Source: a virus | Lineage: Duplodnaviria > Caudoviricetes | Virus record (IMG/VR): IMGVR_UViG_3300033233_001970 | Length of the DNA: 64,000 nt | Reading direction: 5' to 3' (one strand) | In this document: positions 1 through 38,415 of the stretch, in pieces | Layout: every line of letters begins with the position of its first letter | How positions within the stretch are numbered: position 1 is the first letter of the stretch | Program-made: the position numbers and the translations under genes | The notes under the pieces: model-generated | What the model was told of the DNA's origin: nothing | The model's database searches: none | The model's input: only the letters and a program-made list of their open reading frames with translations

Positions 1-369
1 TCTACGTCGAACATTGGAACATTTACAACGGCGACTACTGGTGCTCGCCAGAGGTATGGTGGCCCGCCTACGAGTTGATCGAGCCAAATCACATAAGCGA
101 CACGCATCTAGGGGCTGACCAATGCCGTTGCCTGACAACTGGTGGACAACAAATCTAGAGGATGAGCCTTGCGACGGTTGCGGCGCCAAACCGTCGAAGC
201 ATCGCGGCCACGGATCGTACACGTGCAAGGCGGCTTTGCCTATTAGTTCTCGGTCGATGACCAATCACAAGGCAGCGTTCGATCCTGCCTTTTGATTGAA
301 CTGTGATTCGCATGATTGATCACGGTTGCCACACGCTTCAGCGTGGGGTACACGATGGTTATCCCAATC

Positions 370-843
370 ATGCGAAAAGAACCCATCACGTTTATCATGC
401 CGAGCGGCGGCACCGCCGTCCTCCCCAGCATCGACGCGCTCCTCGAACTCGAAGATGCGCTCGTTGAGCGGCAAGGCCGTCGCGCACGCCGCGATGCCCA
501 TCAAGCCACCCGCGACGCGAACGGCGCGACGGTGTCGCCGATCGTCAACACCGCGCCGGACGCCGCCTGGACGATGTTCTGCGGCTTGCTGGCCGGCGAC
601 AAGCGCAAACCGCAGCGCAAGCTCTTGGCGGTGGTGCGCGCGAAGAAGAAGTGCACGCTCGACGAGTTGATGCCGCTCTTCGACACGAAGAAGGGCCAGG
701 CGGTCGGCGGGCGCATCTCCGGCGTCTCGAAGAACGCCGACAAGGCCGGCTTTCCGAAGAATGCCGTTTTGATCTTGAACAAAGTCGAGCGCACGGTTTC
801 CGCTGGTCCCGCTCTTCTCGCGAACGACCCGCCCGCTCCGTGA
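370..843 (+). CDS. hypothetical protein
   Basis: Open ORF with host-like codon usage; start chosen at MRKEPITF; no recognised motif. Confidence 0.55.
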   Translation: MRKEPITFIMPSGGTAVLPSIDALLELEDALVERQGRRARRDAHQATRDANGATVSPIVNTAPDAAWTMFCGLLAGDKRKPQRKLLAVVRAKKKCTLDELMPLFDTKKGQAVGGRISGVSKNADKAGFPKNAVLILNKVERTVSAGPALLANDPPAP

Positions 844-1169
844 CTCTCGCAAGGTGCCGATCATGACGACAAAATAGGCAACGCCCAGCCAGTTCACCGA
901 TTTCCCAATCATGCTCTGGCTGAGCGTGGTCCGGCCGGTTTGCACCGTGTAGGACGTGCGGAGTATCCGCCGCGCGTTCCATCGGTGCAAGCCTTTTTCT
1001 AGGTCAAAACGCACAGATTGGAAAAAGCGCATGGATATCTCCATCTTGCGCGCGCTCGATTTCCGCTGTCCGCTCACCGAGCTGCTCCGCTTGTGGTGGG
1101 TGACGGACGGCACGTCGAACGCGTAGGACATGAAGACCGAGGTCGAGGGCCGGTACCGGGTATCGGCCC

Positions 1170-1367
1170 TCACTTCTTCGCCTCCGAGCGTCTCGGGCGG
1201 TCCCAATAGGGGCTCTTGCACGACCCGCAGACGCGCGGACGGTCTTCTGGCTTCGGTTCCTTCGGCTTCTTGCCGGCCTCGGGCTGGACGAAGCCACGCG
1301 GCACCCACTCGTGGCCACAGCGTGAACATCGGTAGCCCCAAATCTTGATCTCGACGAGCGTAGTCAT
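1170..1367 (-). CDS. small zinc-ribbon protein divergent from the transposase
   Basis: CSRCGHEWVPR...VCGSCKSPYW, two CxxC pairs. Confidence 0.7.
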   Translation of the reverse strand: MTTLVEIKIWGYRCSRCGHEWVPRGFVQPEAGKKPKEPKPEDRPRVCGSCKSPYWDRPRRSEAKK

Positions 1368-1400
1368 CTACTGGGCGCACGATACGTTGGCGCACGCTCC

Positions 1401-1429
1401 TTGACAAGTATGTACCTAGCCAGTATATA
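1401..1429 (+). promoter_or_regulatory. sigma70-like promoter of the transposase, probably leaderless
   Basis: TTGACA 1401-1406, 17 nt spacer, TATATA 1424-1429, ATG at 1437. Confidence 0.5.
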
Positions 1430-1436
1430 CATTGGC

Positions 1437-2675
1437 ATGGAGCAAGCCATCCTCGATCCGCGCCAAGCAAGAGGGCTCGCGCTCGCGAAAAACGCGAAGA
1501 TCAAGAAGCTCACGAGCCGTTTTTGGCTCGTTCCTTCGCAAACGTCGAAGGAGAAGTACGTGGTCGATCCCGAGAAGGGCACGTGCAGTTGTCCAGATCA
1601 CGAGACGCGACAGGTGAAGTGCAAGCACCAGTGGGCTCTCGAATACGCGCGGCACGAAGTGACCGCGCCCGATGGATCGACGGTCGTGTCAGAAACCTTG
1701 CGCATCACTTACGCTCAGGATTGGCCGCGCTACAACGCGGCTCAGCAGAACGAGAAGGCGGAAGTCGAGAAGCTTCTCCGCGCGCTCTGCGAAGGCGTTT
1801 CTACGCCCGCGCAAAAAGGGCCTGGACGCCGCTATTTGCCGCTTTCCGACGTCGTTTTCGGCATGACGATGAAGGTCTACACGACCGTCTCGGGCCGGCG
1901 GGCGACGACGGACATTCGCGAGTGCGCGGCGAAGAAGTTGATCGACGTGGCGCCGCACTACAACACGCTTTTCGTCGCTATGGAGAAGCCGGAGTTGACG
2001 CCGATCTTGACGGGGCTCGTCGAGGAGTCGGCGTCGCCGCTCGTATCGATCGAGTCGACGTTCGCGCCGGACTCGACCGGCTTCAGCACGAGCAATTTCG
2101 CGCGCTGGTTCGACCACAAATACGGCGGCGACCGGGAGCGCGAGCGCAAAGAGCACACGTGGGTGAAGATGCACGCAATCGTCGGCTGCAAAACCAACGT
2201 CATCACGGGCGTCAAGATCACGAACCCGTTCGGTGTCGACACCGCCGACGCGCGGCACCTCGCTGGGCTCGTCGAGACGACCGCAAAACGGTTCTCGGTC
2301 GACGAGGTCGTGGCGGACAAAGCGTATCTCAGTCGCGAAAATCTCGAGAAAATCGATGAGGTCGGCGCGCGAGCCTTCATCCCGATGAAGGAGAACTCGA
2401 AGGCTGGGCGCCATCCGCTCTGGAACGAGCTTTTTCACTATTACAACTATCGACGGCCCGATTTTCTCGCGCACTACCACGCGCGATCGAACGTCGAGGC
2501 GACGTTTTCGATGATCAAAAGAAAGTTCGGAGATCGCGTTCGCTCGAAACTTTTCGTTGCGCAAGTGAACGAGCTGCTTTGCAAATCGCTTTGCCACAAC
2601 CTCGCCGTACTCGTGCATTCGTTTCACGAACTCGGCGTAGAATCGAAGTTTTGGAAAGACGTGGAACGAACGTGA
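1437..2675 (+). mobile_element. DDE transposase (IS4/IS5-superfamily-like) with N-terminal SWIM zinc finger
   Basis: SWIM CSCPD..CKH; catalytic motifs DSTGF, WVKMH, ADKAY, YHARSNVEATFSMIKRKFG. Confidence 0.9.
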
Positions 2676-2730
2676 ACTACGTCGTTTTTCAATGTGCAAT
2701 GCATGTGCATCACGTTTTCGCGAGCGCAAC

Positions 2731-3004
2731 ATGATTGCGAGCGATCTCACACGTGAAGAACAAGATCACGTGCGCACGGCTTTGCGTTTTCTTCGGACAA
2801 AGTGCGGCGGATGGGCGCCGCTCGCTAAGGCTGTTCGGGATCACGCTTTCGCACGTCGTCGCTGGCCGCGTCGTAAGCCCAACGCTCGCGTTCCGCGTGG
2901 CGCGATTCGTGGACGTGCCGTTCGATGACCTCGTGTCCGGAAAGTATCCCGCTCCGGGCGCGTGCCCGATGTGCGGTCACGTAAAGGAGGAGGTGTCGCC
3001 GTGA
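2731..3004 (+). pseudogene. frameshifted XRE-like HTH protein with C-terminal CPxC
   Basis: MIASDLTREEQDHVRTALRFLRTKCGGWAPLAKAV continues in another frame as ITLSHVVAGRVVSPTLAFRVARF..CPMCGH; shift near 2838. Confidence 0.65.
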
Positions 3005-3237
3005 GTCTTCGGCTCGTGAAGCCGATCCCGCCCGAGCCGGTCTTTCCGAAGCTCGCAAAGCGGCTCGTCTTCCCGTTGATCGCCGTCACCGGCGGCAAGA
3101 GCCGGATGGCCGTCGTCGGGCGTGTGCACCGAAGAATCAACGTCGAGCGCGAGCTGTACTTGCTGACGCTCGACACGGCGAAGGAGCGCGGCATCTGTCC
3201 CGATCCCAGCAACGACAACGCAGCGCTCTACACATGA
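3001..3237 (+). CDS. hypothetical protein
   Basis: GTG start overlapping the previous stop, upstream GGAGG. Confidence 0.5.
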   Translation: MSLRLVKPIPPEPVFPKLAKRLVFPLIAVTGGKSRMAVVGRVHRRINVERELYLLTLDTAKERGICPDPSNDNAALYT

Positions 3238-3479
3238 TCGCGATGCGCTCGCTTCGGTGCCACAAACTTCACAACAAGCTCGATCCCGAGCCCGGCCGCG
3301 ATGCGCATGAGCGTGTCGATGGTCACGTTCTTCGTGCCGCGCTCGATCTTGGCGAGGTTCGTCGGATCCATGCGGATGCGCTTCGCGAGCTGCACCTGGG
3401 AGACCTGCATCGCGTCGCGCGTCGACCGCAACTGCTTTCCGATCGCGATCAGCGCTTCTTTGGTCCCGTCGTCGGCCAC
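3228..3479 (-). CDS. XRE-family HTH transcriptional regulator
   Basis: IGKQLRSTR..VSQVQLAKRI..TNLAKIERGTKNVTIDTLMRIAAGL. Confidence 0.88.
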   Translation of the reverse strand: MADDGTKEALIAIGKQLRSTRDAMQVSQVQLAKRIRMDPTNLAKIERGTKNVTIDTLMRIAAGLGIELVVKFVAPKRAHRDHV

Positions 3480-3560
3480 GCCGACACGAGACCCATTGCG
3501 CGGCGCTGTCGAAATGGTCTTATAGGACCATCCATCGGTGGACCTTTCGGGGAGGTTTTC

Positions 3561-4334
3561 ATGCGTCGAATTGTTGCTCTGCTCTCGCTTGCTGTTGCTT
3601 CCGTCGCGTGCTCGTCGTCGTCATCGCCAGGCGGCGGAGAGGTCGACAGCGGCACGCAGGACAGCGGAAGCGGAAACGACAGCGGGACATCGTTGACGCC
3701 GGACACGTTCGTGGCGCAGTTGCCGGCCGCGTACTGCTCCGTCTACTTCCGGTGTTGCAAGACGACGGAGATCCCGCACGTCGGGATCCTCTCCGCGAAC
3801 AACATCACGACGCAGGCGCAGTGCACGGCATCGAGCGCCGTCGCGAGCGCGCTCCGCTTCCAGTGCTTGCCCGCCGAGGTGAATCAGTATCACGCGATGA
3901 CCTTCGACGCGCAGAAGGCGGCGGCGTGCCTCAGTGATATCCAGAACGCTCCGTGCGGCGGCGGGTTGGTCACGGAGCTTTGGGGCTCGACGAACTGTCA
4001 GGGAGCATTTGTCGGAAGTCTGCCGCTTGGAAGCCAATGCAGCGCGAGCCACTGCACCGTGAACCTAGCGTCGGCGTCCAAACCGAACAGCGAATGCGCG
4101 AGTGGTGACTGCAACAGCTCGGGCGTGTGCGCGAACCCGTCGCCCATCGGCGGAACGTGCTCGACCGACTCCGATTGCGTCTCGGGGTCGTGGTGCAGCT
4201 CGCTCCGCACGTGCACCAAGGCTACGGCGGCCGGCGGCGCCTGCACGCAGTTCGATCAATGCGAATTTCCGCAGGCTTGCTTCACGTCGCCTGGTGGCGG
4301 GAACGCCTGCGAATTGGTTTGTACCGGACCATGA
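3561..4334 (+). CDS. Cys-rich myxobacterial-type lipoprotein
   Basis: Lipobox ASVAC, DSG-rich linker, AYCSVYFRCC, FDAQKAAACL, repeated G..C..D.DC modules; GGAGG RBS. Confidence 0.85.
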   Translation: MRRIVALLSLAVASVACSSSSSPGGGEVDSGTQDSGSGNDSGTSLTPDTFVAQLPAAYCSVYFRCCKTTEIPHVGILSANNITTQAQCTASSAVASALRFQCLPAEVNQYHAMTFDAQKAAACLSDIQNAPCGGGLVTELWGSTNCQGAFVGSLPLGSQCSASHCTVNLASASKPNSECASGDCNSSGVCANPSPIGGTCSTDSDCVSGSWCSSLRTCTKATAAGGACTQFDQCEFPQACFTSPGGGNACELVCTGP

Positions 4335-4597
4335 AGTTCGACCTCGCAACGCTCCTGCTCTGCGCGTTGATGGCCTGCACGACCGCCGTCTTCGGATGCG
4401 ACGCGTTCGGTCTCGAAAAATCGTCGCTGAAAACGCGTAGCGCGAACGACCTGAAGTGCGACGCGAGCAAGCTTGACGTGAAAGAAATCGGCAACCATTC
4501 GTGGACGGTCGCCGGCTGCGGCCAGACGGGAAACTACACGTGCATTCGCGGCGAAGGCATCGGCGAAAGCCAGTGGTCGTGCATGAAGGAAAAATGA
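4331..4597 (+). CDS. small lipoprotein
   Basis: Signal peptide with Cys; RSANDLKC..VAGCGQTGNYTC pattern. Confidence 0.75.
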   Translation: MKFDLATLLLCALMACTTAVFGCDAFGLEKSSLKTRSANDLKCDASKLDVKEIGNHSWTVAGCGQTGNYTCIRGEGIGESQWSCMKEK

Positions 4598-4632
4598 GCT
4601 GACGACTCGCGAGCGTCGCTACCATCAACCGC

Positions 4633-4932
4633 ATGGGGCTCCGCGCATACCAGACCTGGCTCGCGATCACGTACATCGTCTTCGGTGGCGCGCTTCTGCT
4701 CGCCGCCTTCTTCATCTCGATCGGATCGAGCGGCGAGCCGTTCGTGGTGCTCGCCGAATGGATGACGATCGGGCTCGGGCTCATGCTCCTACTGGCCGGC
4801 TTCATCGGCGTCGGCGCCGCGATGGCCGGAACGAGCACGGCGAAATGCATTCACTGCGGCAAAGACGCTCGCGTGCACATCGGCTTCTTCAGCGGAAGGC
4901 CCGAGCTGCGACGAAGCGACGCAGGGAGCTGA
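4633..4932 (+). CDS. two-TM membrane protein with C-terminal CxxC
   Basis: Two hydrophobic segments, then CIHCG. Confidence 0.65.
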   Translation: MGLRAYQTWLAITYIVFGGALLLAAFFISIGSSGEPFVVLAEWMTIGLGLMLLLAGFIGVGAAMAGTSTAKCIHCGKDARVHIGFFSGRPELRRSDAGS

Positions 4933-5297
4933 CGCTCGACGATTTGCACTACGTCTGCACTACAACGACCTCTGGAAGAGGCCGGATTCATTGAATGATT
5001 TTAGCTATTTCCATTCGCTGCGAAGCGATGGATAATTCGAGCAGGAGATCATCATGATGAAAAGCAACGTCGGTGCGCAACTCAACCCGCAGCTCTCGCC
5101 GAAGAGCGCCGGGCTTGGCGGCTGTGGCAGCGGCATACCGAAATCATCGGTCAGATACTTGGGCGCCGCGTCGTCGAAGACCTTGTGCACAACTCCGGGC
5201 GAGGAGGAACGTTCGACGATCTCTTCATTCAGGACTTGGCTGTCGCGTGCATGAATTACTACGTCCGAAAAGGGTTACCGCAACGGCGTGAAGACTC

Positions 5298-5972
5298 ATG
5301 AAAATCGACGGTCCCTCAAGAATCCACGATGTGATCGCGTCCTTGCCTGAGTCGATGGATCGTCGAGACGTCTTCTACCTCGTGCACATGGACGCCAAAG
5401 GCACGTACATGGGCGTCAGCGAGCTTTCGCGCGGTCGCGCGCCCACACCGAAAGAAGTTGTGGACGCTGCTGAAGCCGGAGGCGGAGATCTCTTCGTCAT
5501 CGCACGCAACAAACCGGCGTCGTTCGATTCGAGCCCTACGAATGCCGATGCGAGCCTTGTCCGAAAGCTCGCGGGCACGCTTCCGGTCGACGTAAAGCTC
5601 GCCGACTACGTCATCGTCGGCGGCGATACGTCGTTTTCATTTCGACGCGATGGTCCAGACAATGAGAACCCTCGCTCTTCGTCAGAAGAAAGTTTTCTCA
5701 AATGGACGCGATTATCGTCGGATTATTGGAGTGCTGCCGGTAAAGATCTCGGTGCCGACAAGCCGTACGAAATCGTGTACCAACTGCATCGCGAAAACGG
5801 CGCCATCAGAATCACGCATTCTTCAAAGGGAGAAAGCGAGAGTCATGTCGTGACGCTCAGCGGATTGGATTCTCCGATCACGATGGAAGATGCGAAGCAA
5901 TGGGTGGAGCGACATCACGCGAAGTTGATTCGCACGTTCGTGACGAAGGGCGGGCATAGGTTCGAGCCATGA
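5298..5972 (+). CDS. RadC/JAB-domain protein with degenerate metal site and C-terminal extension
   Basis: FYLVHMD..SELSRG..PKEV..IARNKPA..PTNAD..LADYVIVG..FSFR; HNHPS replaced by RNKPA. Confidence 0.7.
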   Translation: MKIDGPSRIHDVIASLPESMDRRDVFYLVHMDAKGTYMGVSELSRGRAPTPKEVVDAAEAGGGDLFVIARNKPASFDSSPTNADASLVRKLAGTLPVDVKLADYVIVGGDTSFSFRRDGPDNENPRSSSEESFLKWTRLSSDYWSAAGKDLGADKPYEIVYQLHRENGAIRITHSSKGESESHVVTLSGLDSPITMEDAKQWVERHHAKLIRTFVTKGGHRFEP

Positions 5973-6232
5973 TTAGCGACACGCCCTGTCCTCGCTGCGG
6001 TTGCTTCATTGTCAAGAAGTTTGAGTGCGGATGCGGCGCGGTACACAGCGACTACTGCAACAACTGCGGACGCTGGACGACGCTTCTGCCGACGGAATAC
6101 GCGGCCCTCGGCGACATCGACGCTCGTTGCGAAGCCGGTCGTGTGCCACACGAGCATTCTTCAGAGGAGAAGACAGCTCGCATCGCAGCGCATATCGCCC
6201 GTCTTCGGCGTGAACATCAGGTAGGGAATTGA
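5969..6232 (+). CDS. zinc-finger hypothetical protein
   Basis: CPRC, CGCG, CNNC; overlaps the previous stop. Confidence 0.6.
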   Translation: MISDTPCPRCGCFIVKKFECGCGAVHSDYCNNCGRWTTLLPTEYAALGDIDARCEAGRVPHEHSSEEKTARIAAHIARLRREHQVGN

Positions 6233-14669: not shown

Positions 14670-15791
14670 GTACAACACGCTTTCCGAAAAAGGTGGTTCC
14701 ACCAAAGCTCTGTACAAGAAGATGGCCAAAACGTGCGAACAGGCCAGGAATTTGTTTCTCGAAATTTCGATCTGAAATGATTCGCTGGATCAAATCGAAA
14801 CCACCGGCCGGATGGGGCGCCACTGAGCTCGAAGCCGTATTTGGTCGCGTACTTTGCGTTGTTCGTCGCGCAGCGACGTTTCGGTGCGAGCGATGGAGAT
14901 GGCACGTCGTCAGCATCCAGGATACGGAAAAGTTAGCGATGCCTCTTTCGAGAGTCAGCGCGCCGCCTCTTTACCGCGCCGATGCGCGAGGCAACGCATC
15001 GTCGATGGAGGCCGCGTGTCTCGCCGCAGAGAACGCAGCCAAGGACGTCGAGAAGCATCTCGCGGAAATGGACAAGCTTTACCCATTGAAGCCAAAGCGA
15101 AAAAAGCGGTGAACACGTGAAAATCACCATCAAGCCCAACGTGACACGCATCACCTTCAAAATGCACGTCGACGGCAAAGAGAAAGTCGTCGCCGAATTC
15201 ATTCGCAAAGAGAAGATTGACAATCTTCTGAATGACGACGGTTCCATCGGCCAATTTCTGCGCGGCCTGCGCGACAGCGTCAACGATCCAAATACGGATG
15301 GGTACAAGCGACAGTGAGTCCTTACCGCGAAACGGAGCGCCCGACCGAGATTGAAGATCCGGAAAACCAGATGGTTCTTCACGGAGTCCGTATTCGGGCG
15401 TGGCGATCATTTTATCAGCATGCGCTCGACGCGCTCACGAAGACATTGAGTACGTGGACCGCCGAGGACATCGCGAAGCGCGCGGAGGAAATTGCCGACG
15501 CGGCGTACGGTCGGTGGCTCCCGAGGCATGCGGCGTCGATTATTGTAGAGATAGAGATCGGCGAGGCGCAACTAGTGGCGTTTCGCAAAAAACTGTGAGC
15601 TGCCCCTCCTGCGCCAAAGCCAAACGCGTCGTCAGGCACCTCACGACAGATCCTCATTGGATGTGCCGATTCTGCGACGAGACGTTATGTGTCAGGTGTT
15701 ACGTGAAGCACACGTCCGAAAAGCACGAACCGCCTCCACTTTCGCTCAACTGCAAGTGCTGCGACGACATGGCGACTATTCTGGAGAAATC

Positions 15792-34582: not shown

Positions 34583-36504
34583 TGAGCACGAGCATGATGC
34601 AGTATCTCATCGTTGTTTTCGCCACTTTCGGATTGGTTGTCTATGGCATTGGCCGGTTGCGCATCGTGATGAAGAAAAAGCTGTCGGAAAATAGTCTGCT
34701 GCGAACGAACACGACCGTACCTGCGAGCGGCCCATTTCGGACAGCGCCACCGTTAGATGATGGCGCGAAGGATGTCGTCGGTCCCGTCATGACGTTGCAA
34801 CCGAAGAAACTCGTCCTCGCTTTCAAGGAAATACGTGAGGTCGTATGTCCGGCGTGCGACGAAAAATGGAAATGGTGGTATTTGCCTCAGCTCTGTACGT
34901 GCAACGAATGCGACAGGCTTCACTTTCATCAGAAGCATGCCTATGTAGACGCAAAGGATGGCAAAGGCGTTACGTACGGCAAAGTCCCATACGGTGACGA
35001 AGATTATCAAGGTTGCGGTTTCGAGTGGCTTGTTTATGCCAAGCACGTTTCGACCGGCACCGACCCGCAACAGCGTCTCGATCGGCGACCAAGAAAGAAG
35101 GCGCGTGATGCCTGAGTGTCCCGAACACAAAGGTACAATCTTCGGGTGCATGGCGTGCGCGTACAACGAGGCAAGAGCGGAAGTAAACCAGCTTCACGCT
35201 TTGCTCGGGCCGGGAATCGTTGCGCGTATCGAAGCTTTCTCGCGCACACGCATCGAAACTTCTTTGTCAAGCGCACGCCGAAGAATGGTTGCGTCAACTC
35301 GGCGGTCGCATCTCGCGTCCGCGCATCTTCCCGCCAGGCTCATCGTATCCGTGCACTGCAAATTGGCCGTTCGCAGGGGCGGTGCCGGGATGAGGTTTGT
35401 TTACCGCGCGGATGCAATTGTCGACATCATTCAGAAGGTCACGGGCTTTGTGCGCGATCTCGGTGTGCCGGTACGAAGCGGCTCCTTTCGCATTCACGAG
35501 GATGGATCGATTGGTCTTTTGCTTTCCGGAGAACGAAAAAAGAAGCGGTACACGATCGAGGCGTTCGACGTCGCGAACATTCGAGGCGTCCAGGGTCGCG
35601 CCGAGCTTGTGGCGCTTATTGGATCGGTTTTTCAGGGCGAGATCATCGATCCTGATGCCCGATCGGTGACCGGAGAGAAGCGATGACGCCCAAGGAGCGA
35701 GCGAAGGTTGAGGATCTAGATCTGAAACTTGCGATGGGCGTCGAGCAGACAACCCTCGCCGTCAGTCGCATCCTCCAGTCCGCCGTAAGGAATGAGTGGG
35801 AGAAGGTTCTCGCCGATCTCGCCTTCGCAAAAGAAGTCGCGTCGCTCTCGAAACGCAACTTCAAATCACGAATGCGTATCGCTGTTGGGCTACGGAAGAC
35901 GTCGACCAGCGAGGAGTGGAAGCGATGAGTGTTATTTGCGAGCACGGTAACTCGGCGGCCGTGTGCCGATCCTGCAACGAGCGGCGCATCGCCGCGCTCG
36001 AGGCGGAGAACGCGCGGCTCCTAGAAGCCATCGAAGGGCAAAAGGCGCTGGCGCTGTACGGCTACCAGGTACGCGACGAAGAGAACATGCGGCTTCGCGA
36101 AGCGCTGCGGGCGATTCTCGATCTCAAAGGTGCGCCGATCGAGTGTGACTGGAAAGCCGGTGTGATCGCCAGCGCGGCGCTCGCCGAACAAAAGACCAAG
36201 AAAGAAGGCGTGTGATGCGCGCAACCGATCACGAGACGGACGAAACACCTCAGCGCGCGAGCCTCGAGAAAAACGGGAAAACAATGAACGCTTGTGACCA
36301 CGGCGTCATGTTCAACGAAACCGAAGCCAGAAAACTCATTGAGGGCTGGGCCGCCGCAGACGAGGTCGAGTTCATCATGGGATGCCCTGCGAGCGCCGAA
36401 GTGCGCAAACGATGGCCTCGGCTCAACGGCTCATGCCCGAAGGGCTGCGGATACGTCGGTATCGCGTACGCATCGCACGAACACTACACCTATGGAGATT
36501 GGTG

Positions 36505-37041
36505 ATGGTCGATCCGCGTCGCGAAAAGAAACCCGTCAACACGCTGCCGCCATCGCCGCCGCTCCATGTGACGCTCGAGGAAGCGCGCGCGTGGCTGCGG
36601 AAGATTATGTGGCAGAAGAAAGTACCGTGCCCGTGCTGCAAACAAGATGTCAAAGTCTACAAAAGACAAATTAATCGCACGATGGCGAAAGCTCTTATTC
36701 GTCTGCACTTCTTCGATGAAGAGTGGGTGCACGTCCCGAGCGTTATCGGATTTTCAAGAATGGGCGGCGATTTCGCCAAAATGGGCTGGTTTGGGCTCGT
36801 CGAGGAAAAAGATGAGATCAAAGACGACGGCAATCCGCACGCGGGCTTTTGGCGTATTACGGAACTAGGCCGTCAATATGTGCGTGAGCAAGCGAAAGTT
36901 CCTTCTTTCATTCTGATTTACAACAACAGAGTTTTGAAATCATCGGAAGATCAGATTGGAATTCGCGACGCGCTCGGAAAGAAGTTCAACTACGACGAAT
37001 TGATGCGCGAAGCGATTGAGAGTTCGGGGAAGACGAAATAA
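36505..37041 (+). CDS. CPCC zinc-ribbon / winged-helix-like phage protein
   Basis: CPCCKQ..YKR, GGDFAK..FGLVE, GFWRITELG. Confidence 0.7.
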   Translation: MVDPRREKKPVNTLPPSPPLHVTLEEARAWLRKIMWQKKVPCPCCKQDVKVYKRQINRTMAKALIRLHFFDEEWVHVPSVIGFSRMGGDFAKMGWFGLVEEKDEIKDDGNPHAGFWRITELGRQYVREQAKVPSFILIYNNRVLKSSEDQIGIRDALGKKFNYDELMREAIESSGKTK

Positions 37042-37042
37042 C

Positions 37043-37114
37043 GGCTGGGCTTGGTTTGGCTAGGCATGGCAAGTCATGGCTGGGCGCGGCGAGGCAAGGA
37101 CTCTTTAAGGGGTA
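37043..37114 (+). repeat. GGY-NN pentamer array 1 (11 units) plus terminal hairpin; candidate guide RNA
   Basis: Phased 5-nt units 37043-37097, NN = TG TT TT TA AT AA AT TG GC GA AA, then GGACTCTTTAAGGGGT. Confidence 0.9.
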
Positions 37115-37124
37115 AGGAACCATC

Positions 37125-37724
37125 ATGAAAATCACAAAATTGAAAGCAGTCATCAAAGGAATTCGTCCGCTTCTCATGCACAACGGTCGTTTGCGCGATC
37201 CGCTCGATCCGCATTCGAAAGCGCTGTCCTCGGCGGTGAAGAAGGCAAAAACGTCAAAGGCAGATGACGACATTCTAGAATCCCAGCGCACGGAGTTCAT
37301 CGGCGGTTTCTACTTCGATGAGAAGTGTGGGCCGTGCATCCCTGCCGACAACCTTCAAGCAATGCTTACCGAGGGCGCACGGAAGCGAAAGCTCGGTAAG
37401 CAAGTCGAAGCGCTGGTGCAAGTAACGGAGCCGTCTGACGGCGCTATCGGTTACAAGCTCGAATACAAGGGGTCGCGCGATCCCGAGAAGATGTTCGAGG
37501 ACGAGCGTCATCGTTTCACGAAGTCATGCAAGATCGGTCAGTCGGCGGTGATGCGAACACGCCCGCGCTTCCCCGATTGGCAACTCGCGTTCGACATCGA
37601 GATCACGGAGGGCGGCCCAACGAAGGAGCAGATCCAAGAGGCTCTCGAAGATGCGGGCTTGCTCATCGGACTCGGCGATTGGACTCCGCGTTACGGGCGA
37701 TTCGAGTTGGTGTCACTGAGCTAG
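37125..37724 (+). CDS. stand-alone RAMP-superfamily (Cas7/Csm3-like) protein
   Basis: N-terminal strand IKGIRPLLMH, IPADNLQAML helix, RTRPRFPDW, C-terminal G-loop GLLIGLGDWTPRYGRFELV. Confidence 0.78.
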   Translation: MKITKLKAVIKGIRPLLMHNGRLRDPLDPHSKALSSAVKKAKTSKADDDILESQRTEFIGGFYFDEKCGPCIPADNLQAMLTEGARKRKLGKQVEALVQVTEPSDGAIGYKLEYKGSRDPEKMFEDERHRFTKSCKIGQSAVMRTRPRFPDWQLAFDIEITEGGPTKEQIQEALEDAGLLIGLGDWTPRYGRFELVSLS

Positions 37725-37727
37725 CAA

Positions 37728-37823
37728 GGCGCGGCAGGGCCGGGCACGGCATGCCGGGGCTAGGCTTGGCACGGCTCGGCTCGGCATGGCCAGGCCAGGC
37801 AGGGCAAGGACTCTTCAAAGAGT
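37728..37823 (+). repeat. GGC-NN pentamer array 2 (16 units) plus terminal hairpin; candidate guide RNA
   Basis: Units 37728-37807, NN = GC AG CG AC AT GG TA TT AC TC TC AT CA CA AG AA, then GGACTCTTCAAAGAGT. Confidence 0.9.
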
Positions 37824-37840
37824 ATGCAAATGAAAATCTT

Positions 37841-37916
37841 GGCTTGGCGTGGCGCGGCGAGGCAAGACACGGCTGGGCGGGGCAAGGTCAGGCGAGGCAA
37901 GGACTCTTAAAAGAGG
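37841..37916 (+). repeat. GGY-NN pentamer array 3 (12 units) plus terminal hairpin; candidate guide RNA
   Basis: Units 37841-37900, NN = TT GT GC GA AA AC TG GG AA CA GA AA, then GGACTCTTAAAAGAGG. Confidence 0.9.
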
Positions 37917-37922
37917 ACAATC

Positions 37923-38336
37923 ATGAACAAGAATGAAATCGACACGATCGTTATGGAAATGGTTGACGAGTTGCTCAAAGTAGAGCGATTCACTCGACAA
38001 GATTTCATGAATCGTTGGCCATACCATCCGGCCGTGTTCGGCGACCTGCTCACGCAAGCTTTCGACATTGTTCGAAACGATCATGGAATTGAGTTTCGTC
38101 CTGGTCCTTACGGTAGCGTGCAACGCGCAAATTACAAAGAGACGATCAATCGCTCGCATCGTCAGCGAAAAGCCGCGCTCAAGAAACTCGAACGAAGCGC
38201 AGCACGAGCGGACGTATCCGCGAAAATGGCTACCACAACGAAAGAGCGAGAAACAGCAGAGAAGATGGCTGATCTTCAAAAACTTCAGCTCACTGCGGCG
38301 AAAGTACGATCGCGTAAACGACTTTCGGCTGTATGA
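37923..38336 (+). CDS. hypothetical accessory protein inside the RAMP/array cassette
   Basis: GAGGA RBS; sits exactly between arrays 3 and 4; basic helical C-terminus. Confidence 0.75.
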   Translation: MNKNEIDTIVMEMVDELLKVERFTRQDFMNRWPYHPAVFGDLLTQAFDIVRNDHGIEFRPGPYGSVQRANYKETINRSHRQRKAALKKLERSAARADVSAKMATTTKERETAEKMADLQKLQLTAAKVRSRKRLSAV

Positions 38337-38344
38337 AATCGCAC

Positions 38345-38415
38345 GGCTTGGCCAGGCTGGGCGCGGCTGGGCGAGGCCAGGCTGGGCAAGGCAAGGCAGG
38401 GACTCTTCAAAGAGA
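38345..38415 (+). repeat. GGC-NN pentamer array 4 (11 units) plus terminal hairpin; candidate guide RNA
   Basis: Units 38345-38399, NN = TT CA TG GC TG GA CA TG AA AA AG, then GGACTCTTCAAAGAGA. Confidence 0.9.

Follow-up and report, generated by a model that had tools for sequence, protein, structure and literature searches.

The window, that is, the whole 64-kb stretch of DNA analysed here, reads as phage DNA: nearly all plausible genes lie on the + strand, and their matches are to PHROG families of unknown function. It carries four tracts of GGYNN pentamers, all on the + strand and 11, 16, 12 and 11 units long (n = 50 units), that are interleaved with two genes, for proteins of 199 and 137 aa; one tract lies upstream of the 199-aa gene and three lie downstream. 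The parts are as follows, with names taken from the VIPR system to which we assign the locus below, so that each vrRNA is putative.

37043..37097, + strand: vrRNA1 guide tract (A1); 11 GGYNN units, NN = TG TT TT TA AT AA AT TG GC GA AA; unit 7 degenerate (GTC)
37098..37112, + strand: vrRNA1 tail; GGA plus a small predicted hairpin, CUCU-UUAA-GGGG
37125..37724, + strand: vipr, between tracts 1 and 2; 199 aa, phrog_4652 match, predicted Cas7-like RAMP protein
37728..37807, + strand: vrRNA2 guide tract (A2); 16 units with 32 informative nt, NN = GC AG CG AC AT GG TA TT AC TC TC AT CA CA AG AA; unit 6 degenerate (GCC)
37808..37822, + strand: vrRNA2 tail hairpin, ACUCU-UCAA-AGAGU
37841..37900, + strand: vrRNA3 guide tract (A3); 12 units, NN = TT GT GC GA AA AC TG GG AA CA GA AA; unit 6 degenerate (GAC)
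37901..37915, + strand: vrRNA3 tail hairpin; its 3′ arm AAGAGGA overlaps the likely Shine–Dalgarno sequence of the 137-aa gene
37923..38336, + strand: candidate vap (vipr-accessory protein) gene; 137 aa, modelled as a winged-helix-like N-terminal domain plus a long helical hairpin
38345..38399, + strand: vrRNA4 guide tract (A4); 11 units, none degenerate, NN = TT CA TG GC TG GA CA TG AA AA AG
38400..38414, + strand: vrRNA4 tail hairpin, identified by a motif match and an MFE fold

Rfam and tRNA scans of the whole window gave no match. The DNA comes from a sediment metagenome, within contigs of 198–246 kb (source assembly ENA ERZ27248239). Its first 6 kb (positions 1–6000) have a GC content of 0.59–0.61, against 0.54–0.58 across most of the remainder, and an ORF at 1401–2675 matches transposase PHROGs; this part may be inserted DNA or the border of another module. 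Just upstream of vrRNA1, at 36382–37041, a 219-aa gene matches phrog_2693 and, weakly, a zinc ribbon. In two related loci, L059 and L060, the genes upstream of the arrays differ in length (129 and 29 aa in L059, 280 aa in L060); judged from these upstream gene lengths, the 219-aa gene is probably not part of the VIPR system.

Fixed triplets and variable dinucleotides

The triplet of the unit is GGC in 45 of the 50 units and GGT in two, the remaining three being the degenerate GTC, GCC and GAC, and the dinucleotide that follows takes 14 of the 16 possible forms, CC and CT being absent. Re-extraction returned, letter for letter, the four NN strings given in a preliminary description of this sequence; its count of dinucleotides was confirmed too, as was its remark that A1 is AT-rich in GC-rich DNA (17 of its 22 NN bases are A or T, in a window of 54–61% GC). 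A pattern of five GGCNN units with up to two mismatches matched the window 41 times, every time within the tracts, where shuffled sequences gave an expectation of 0.21; no GGCNN-like tract lies elsewhere in the 64 kb.

Across 81 distinct arrays of at least eight units from 27 related loci, the G, G and Y positions have entropies of 0.26, 0.36 and 0.79 bits and the two N positions 1.92 and 1.98 bits, that is, nearly random dinucleotides against nearly fixed triplets. The preliminary description had also seen the last units converge on purines, and this extends to the family: purine dinucleotides (RR) make up 69% of last units and 58% of penultimate units in the 81 arrays, compared with 39% overall, so the last one or two NN are partly constrained and hold less information than the free positions. 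In L059 and L060, whose Viprs are 82% and 76% identical to the one in the window, arrays occupy the same places, with one before vipr and several after it, but have different numbers of units, and the NN strings of these relatives resemble those of the window no more closely than shuffled strings do.

The protein and its neighbour

Three preprints from 2026 (bioRxiv 10.64898/2026.04.26.720920, 10.64898/2026.04.26.720927 and 10.64898/2026.10.15.759431) describe VIPR (Viral Interference Programmable Repeat), a CRISPR-like system of RNA-guided DNA silencing (10.64898/2026.04.26.720920). Its Vipr protein, a stand-alone RAMP, comes mainly from phages, and its RNA, the vrRNA, has 9–16 GGY/NN units and then an invariable tail; base pairing to double-stranded DNA is through the NN and passes over every third target base, which in natural targets is mostly a codon wobble position (10.64898/2026.04.26.720920). 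Binding silences transcription, and changing the NN alone reprogrammes specificity (10.64898/2026.04.26.720920). Each unit is bound by one Vipr protomer, which sequesters the GGY (10.64898/2026.04.26.720920, 10.64898/2026.04.26.720927); cryo-EM traces the single skipped base to a thumb-bundle pocket common to the family (10.64898/2026.04.26.720927). The authors drew the VIPR types from a tree of 667 systems and give another repeat consensus for some of them, and the VIPR of Escherichia phage SUSP1 targets the phage's satellite (VIPR preprints, 2026).

A profile built from 41 homologues of the 199-aa protein, searched against the PDB with hmmsearch, matched a single solved structure, 36pp, through its chain D, 'SUSP1 Vipr protein' (36pp_D, E 5e-54); as a single sequence, the protein matched SUSP1 Vipr over residues 7–195 (phmmer, E 2.2e-29), at ~32% identity. 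Homologues were present in 130 phage records, mostly Felixounavirus. The AF2 model of the protein had a pLDDT of 96, and the top 50 Foldseek matches to it were Csm3/Cas7-type chains, with E values down to 8e-6, the best of them being subunits of type III and type VII CRISPR complexes. On homology and predicted structure, the gene product is a Vipr with a Cas7/Csm3-like fold. We could not assign a host from Vipr relatives in GTDB: the only matches were at ≤45% identity and were spread over many phyla.

In SUSP1 Vipr, H17, R138, D177 and W178 contact G1 and G2, while R179 contacts Y3 (10.64898/2026.04.26.720927). Four of these five listed GGY-contact residues are kept in the window's protein, where H19, R146, D185 and W186 align with the G1/G2 contacts and T187 takes the place of R179. 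H19, R146 and W186 are invariant among close relatives; the wider family keeps H19 and R146 without exception and D185 at ≥90%. A coupling of T187 to the preference for C over T at Y3 was considered and rejected, R-bearing Viprs likewise preferring C.

The 137-aa gene keeps its position in L059 and L060, at 69% and 48% identity. Its protein matches no Pfam or PHROG family and shares no similarity in sequence with the product of the gene next to vipr in wV8, a Felix-O1-like phage. The model (pLDDT 87.5) predicts an N-terminal helix-strand-helix-helix-strand-strand order followed by two long helices, and its fold matches are winged-helix proteins (MAGE/Nse3, ScpB, MarR/SarA and BrxR), all weak (E ≥0.02). 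In some VIPR types, vap genes encode winged-helix-like DNA binders (VIPR preprints, 2026); the modelled fold is consistent with these, although not proof, and we regard the 137-aa gene as a candidate vap.

Tail hairpins and the downstream start codons

Directly 3′ of all four tracts lies GGACTCTTNAAAGAG. With up to two mismatches this motif matches the window five times, against 0.32 expected; four of the matches lie behind the tracts, and the fifth, on the - strand at 14943, is unrelated. A tail hairpin is present in the MFE folds of all four tails. Its stem pairs are CUCU/AGAG here, CGCU/AGCG or GGCG in L059 and CCC/GGG in L060, and more distant relatives have still other tail stems, the pairing being preserved despite changes on both sides. 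A count of hairpins in 80 tails gave 59, against 45.9 ± 4.3 in shuffles, by a criterion too lax for the count to carry weight. We also considered CTCTTTAA as a boxA/nut-like element and the tail as a promoter, and rejected both: no sigma-70-like sites were present, and the motif is the putative vrRNA tail.

Between the end of the vrRNA1 tail and the vipr start codon lie 12 nt, and between the end of the vrRNA3 tail and the start codon of the 137-aa gene lie 7 nt. The 3′ arm of hairpin 3, AAGAGGA, is also the likely Shine–Dalgarno sequence of the 137-aa gene, so a single transcript may serve as both guide RNA and mRNA leader, in the case of vrRNA1 with vipr as in that of vrRNA3 with the 137-aa gene. 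Because these tails end so close to start codons, one of them overlapping a Shine–Dalgarno sequence, filament assembly or processing could set translation; the vrRNA would then double as a 5′ leader, with assembly of the Vipr filament or 3′ processing controlling how much Vipr and accessory protein is made, an idea that we think unlikely to be right as a whole. Autoregulatory coupling through a leader is absent from the main text of the VIPR preprints (10.64898/2026.04.26.720920, 10.64898/2026.04.26.720927).

The bases ATGAAAATC, at the first three codons of vipr (37122–37133), recur in the linker between tracts 2 and 3 (37823–37840), which suggests that the array grew by copying a tract along with its tail and a short run of the bases beyond.

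A probable phage-borne VIPR system and the alternatives

We read the locus, with a probability of roughly 0.88, as a phage-borne VIPR system composed of one vipr, four vrRNA genes and a candidate accessory gene for a small protein with a predicted winged helix. Membership in VIPR rests on protein homology, on the architecture of the arrays and on the tail, and the hypervariable NN among relatives and the lack of a self-target in the window also speak for it. Counted against it are the target searches that found none, the ~32% identity to SUSP1 Vipr with T187 at the Y3 contact, the hairpin tail in place of a pseudoknot, the loss of GGY in 3 of the 50 units and the lower information of the last one or two NN; among sequencing runs, the stretch occurred in the source DNA run and in none of RNA. 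From the papers we infer that the RNAs are transcribed and processed, that the skip rule applies in this clade, that silencing follows and what kind of target is hit. By analogy with SUSP1 and P. fulva, each tract and its tail would be made as a small RNA of ~70–110 nt; one Vipr protomer would sit on each pentamer, holding G1, G2 and Y3 flipped out and presenting N4 and N5; and the filament would read double-stranded DNA as NN-x-NN-x, with two bases paired and one skipped. A gapped R-loop or triplex would form and block transcription of a competing mobile element. The NN dinucleotides would be the guide, with 22–32 informative nt per RNA, and the GGY triplets a handle for the protein. The preliminary description had proposed just such a code, with NN pairs as a gapped target sequence in which one base is skipped and codon wobble is tolerated; by homology this is the published VIPR code, and a reading of the sequence without other information had recovered the logic of a real RNA-guided system, in which the NN guide is noncontiguous and one base is skipped.

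Searches for natural targets of the four guides found none, and no match exceeded chance. In the window, no site matched any guide at ≥80% with skips of 0–2, the best scores being those of unit-order shuffles, and the skip-3 matches were the tracts themselves. The lack of a self-target agrees with the published systems, which show no self-targeting (10.64898/2026.04.26.720920). Public collections were scanned by exact nine-unit seeds (18 informative bases), and matches were judged by their remaining units. Among viral contigs, the A2 seeds (units 1–9 and 8–16) and the A3 seed had no match; units 2–10 of A1 and A4 had three, in phages of 36–40% GC, that matched in the seed only (18–19/22); and A3 with its degenerate unit left wild had one (18/24), out of wobble phase. 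Among metagenome and genome contigs, the A2 and A3 seeds had 9, 9, 4 and 19 matches, which outside the seed were at chance level (3–7/14); the best totals were 25/32 and 22/24, and translations in the NNx frame were full of stops. Four related IMG/VR phage records held no guide match at ≤3 mismatches, and 75 guides of relatives, searched against 342 kb of DNA with skips of 0–2, equalled the shuffled background. These seed scans are weak: with 22-nt guides, only near-perfect matches would, by our estimate, exceed chance in such collections. Since search power was low and many published guides are unassigned (10.64898/2026.04.26.720920), the blank neither supports nor refutes the NN code.

The locus might instead belong to the VIPR family and follow another reading rule or act on another substrate, with a different skip length, an RNA target or part of the tract as guide. 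The distance to SUSP1 Vipr (~32% identity, with R179 replaced by T187), the simple hairpin tail in place of a pseudoknot, the other repeat consensus forms of some VIPR types (VIPR preprint) and the empty search under a one-nucleotide skip all leave room for this, but the GGYNN pentamer, the unit numbers and the residues that contact G1 and G2 match the characterised systems, the thumb-bundle pocket behind the single skip is common to the family (10.64898/2026.04.26.720927) and the target searches had little power for any rule; we judge a different rule improbable.

A further possibility is that the tracts are only binding sites for a multimer, be it a TRAP-like ring or filament or the origin of assembly of a helical coat, in which case the NN would only space the triplets, free of constraint and without a target, and the tracts would serve as a cis-regulatory leader or a protein sponge for the downstream genes. 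TRAP sites, in the Bacillus trp leader, are 11 (G/U)AG triplets with 2–3-nt spacers, one subunit binding each triplet, and the tracts share with them a conserved triplet every 5 nt in about 11 copies. The 5-nt period over 11–16 units, the target search that found none and the tails lying 8–27 nt from the starts of vipr and the 137-aa gene, one of them overlapping a Shine–Dalgarno sequence, fit such a site. However, in TRAP sites the spacers are uninformative and the protein is an unrelated ring, whereas the protein here is a predicted RAMP and the variable bases would be the functional part: the adjoining protein is homologous to one shown experimentally to use the NN for DNA recognition. Relatives with up to six or seven tandem units have no gene behind each, and unconstrained spacers would drift slowly, whereas the NN are wholly different between relatives with 76–82% identical Viprs, which points to rapid turnover by guide replacement or selection. 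TRAP-like, sponge and origin-of-assembly readings of the 5-nt period were dropped once the neighbouring protein matched Vipr, and we hold a mere multimer site to be very improbable.

A slippage microsatellite or another non-functional simple repeat would account for the 5-nt tandem period, but is scarcely credible: the units are not homogenised, as the preliminary description had already remarked, the NN entropy is near maximal, the tracts keep to one strand and have a fixed 3′ motif, and the position next to vipr is conserved in many viral contigs. The architecture shared by these loci already speaks against such a repeat.

Taken as a VIPR system, the locus resembles type II VIPR, the clade of SUSP1 and P. 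fulva, in architecture, the types themselves being defined on the tree of 667 systems. As in SUSP1, there is a stand-alone Cas7-like Vipr of ~200 aa, with an accessory gene directly after vipr if the candidate vap holds; GGYNN tracts of 11–16 units lie one upstream and several downstream of vipr, each with a fixed 3′ tail; and the context is a phage, with no cas genes or CRISPR array nearby. Unlike in SUSP1, the vrRNAs are interleaved with two genes, and the proteins are only ~32% identical. Y3 is C in 45 of 50 units here but mostly T in a Felix-O1-like locus, and the accessory protein has no sequence similarity to the vipr neighbour of phage wV8. The tail is a ~15-nt hairpin abutting ribosome-binding sites, whereas that of SUSP1 is a ~40-nt pseudoknot, so processing and capping may differ.

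With class 1 CRISPR–Cas, in which Cas7/Csm3 assembles on crRNA, the locus would share the RAMP fold, one protomer per interval of the RNA repeat and a thumb by which bases are flipped out at a regular spacing (10.64898/2026.04.26.720927). It differs in having no repeat-spacer array, adaptation genes, other cas genes or nuclease: no CRISPR-type repeats occur at 35–41 kb, and no Cas families were found in the neighbouring ORFs scanned, which cover part of the window. The VIPR guide is also discontinuous, two of five nucleotides pairing rather than five of six as in class 1 CRISPR, and is not a captured spacer.

VIPR as a kind of system is already known from the 2026 preprints, and the locus is a new example of it, adding a divergent clade of uncultured phages from sediment and anaerobic-digester metagenomes. 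By sequence comparison, four features set it apart from characterised type II systems: low protein identity, C instead of T at Y3, a hairpin tail of minimal size and an accessory protein that is unrelated; the minimal tail and the different accessory protein could help to define the minimal requirements for vrRNA capping and processing, and the targets of the four guides would reveal the rival elements that compete with the phage.

Nineteen IMG/VR stretches share the pattern of three units plus GGACTCTT, and several of them carry a Vipr homologue, then 4–7 tandem units of a tract plus a conserved ~33-nt tail, then a small gene. A blastn search with tracts 2–3 also matched Mycobacterium phage Donkeykong (NC_051648.1; L087), in a GGCNN tract of ~350 nt with 1-nt register shifts that is annotated as a CDS, gp48 'hypothetical protein' (1925–2275). 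The next gene there, gp49 (2263–3009, 248 aa), encodes a divergent Vipr homologue (hhalign probability 98.5%, E 2e-15), and what is annotated as gp48 is probably not a protein gene but a staggered vrRNA array. In three actinobacterial contigs with Vipr relatives (L021, L024 and L026), several vrRNA tails end in GGGGTTCGA(C/T/G)TCCCC, which resembles a tRNA T-arm and may be a tRNA-like processing signal. In three IMG/VR loci (L011, L013 and L015), the inner tracts keep a short hairpin tail, and in the tail of the last tract a long GC-rich hairpin precedes a T run, as is typical of an intrinsic terminator, an arrangement that fits a single transcript per array.
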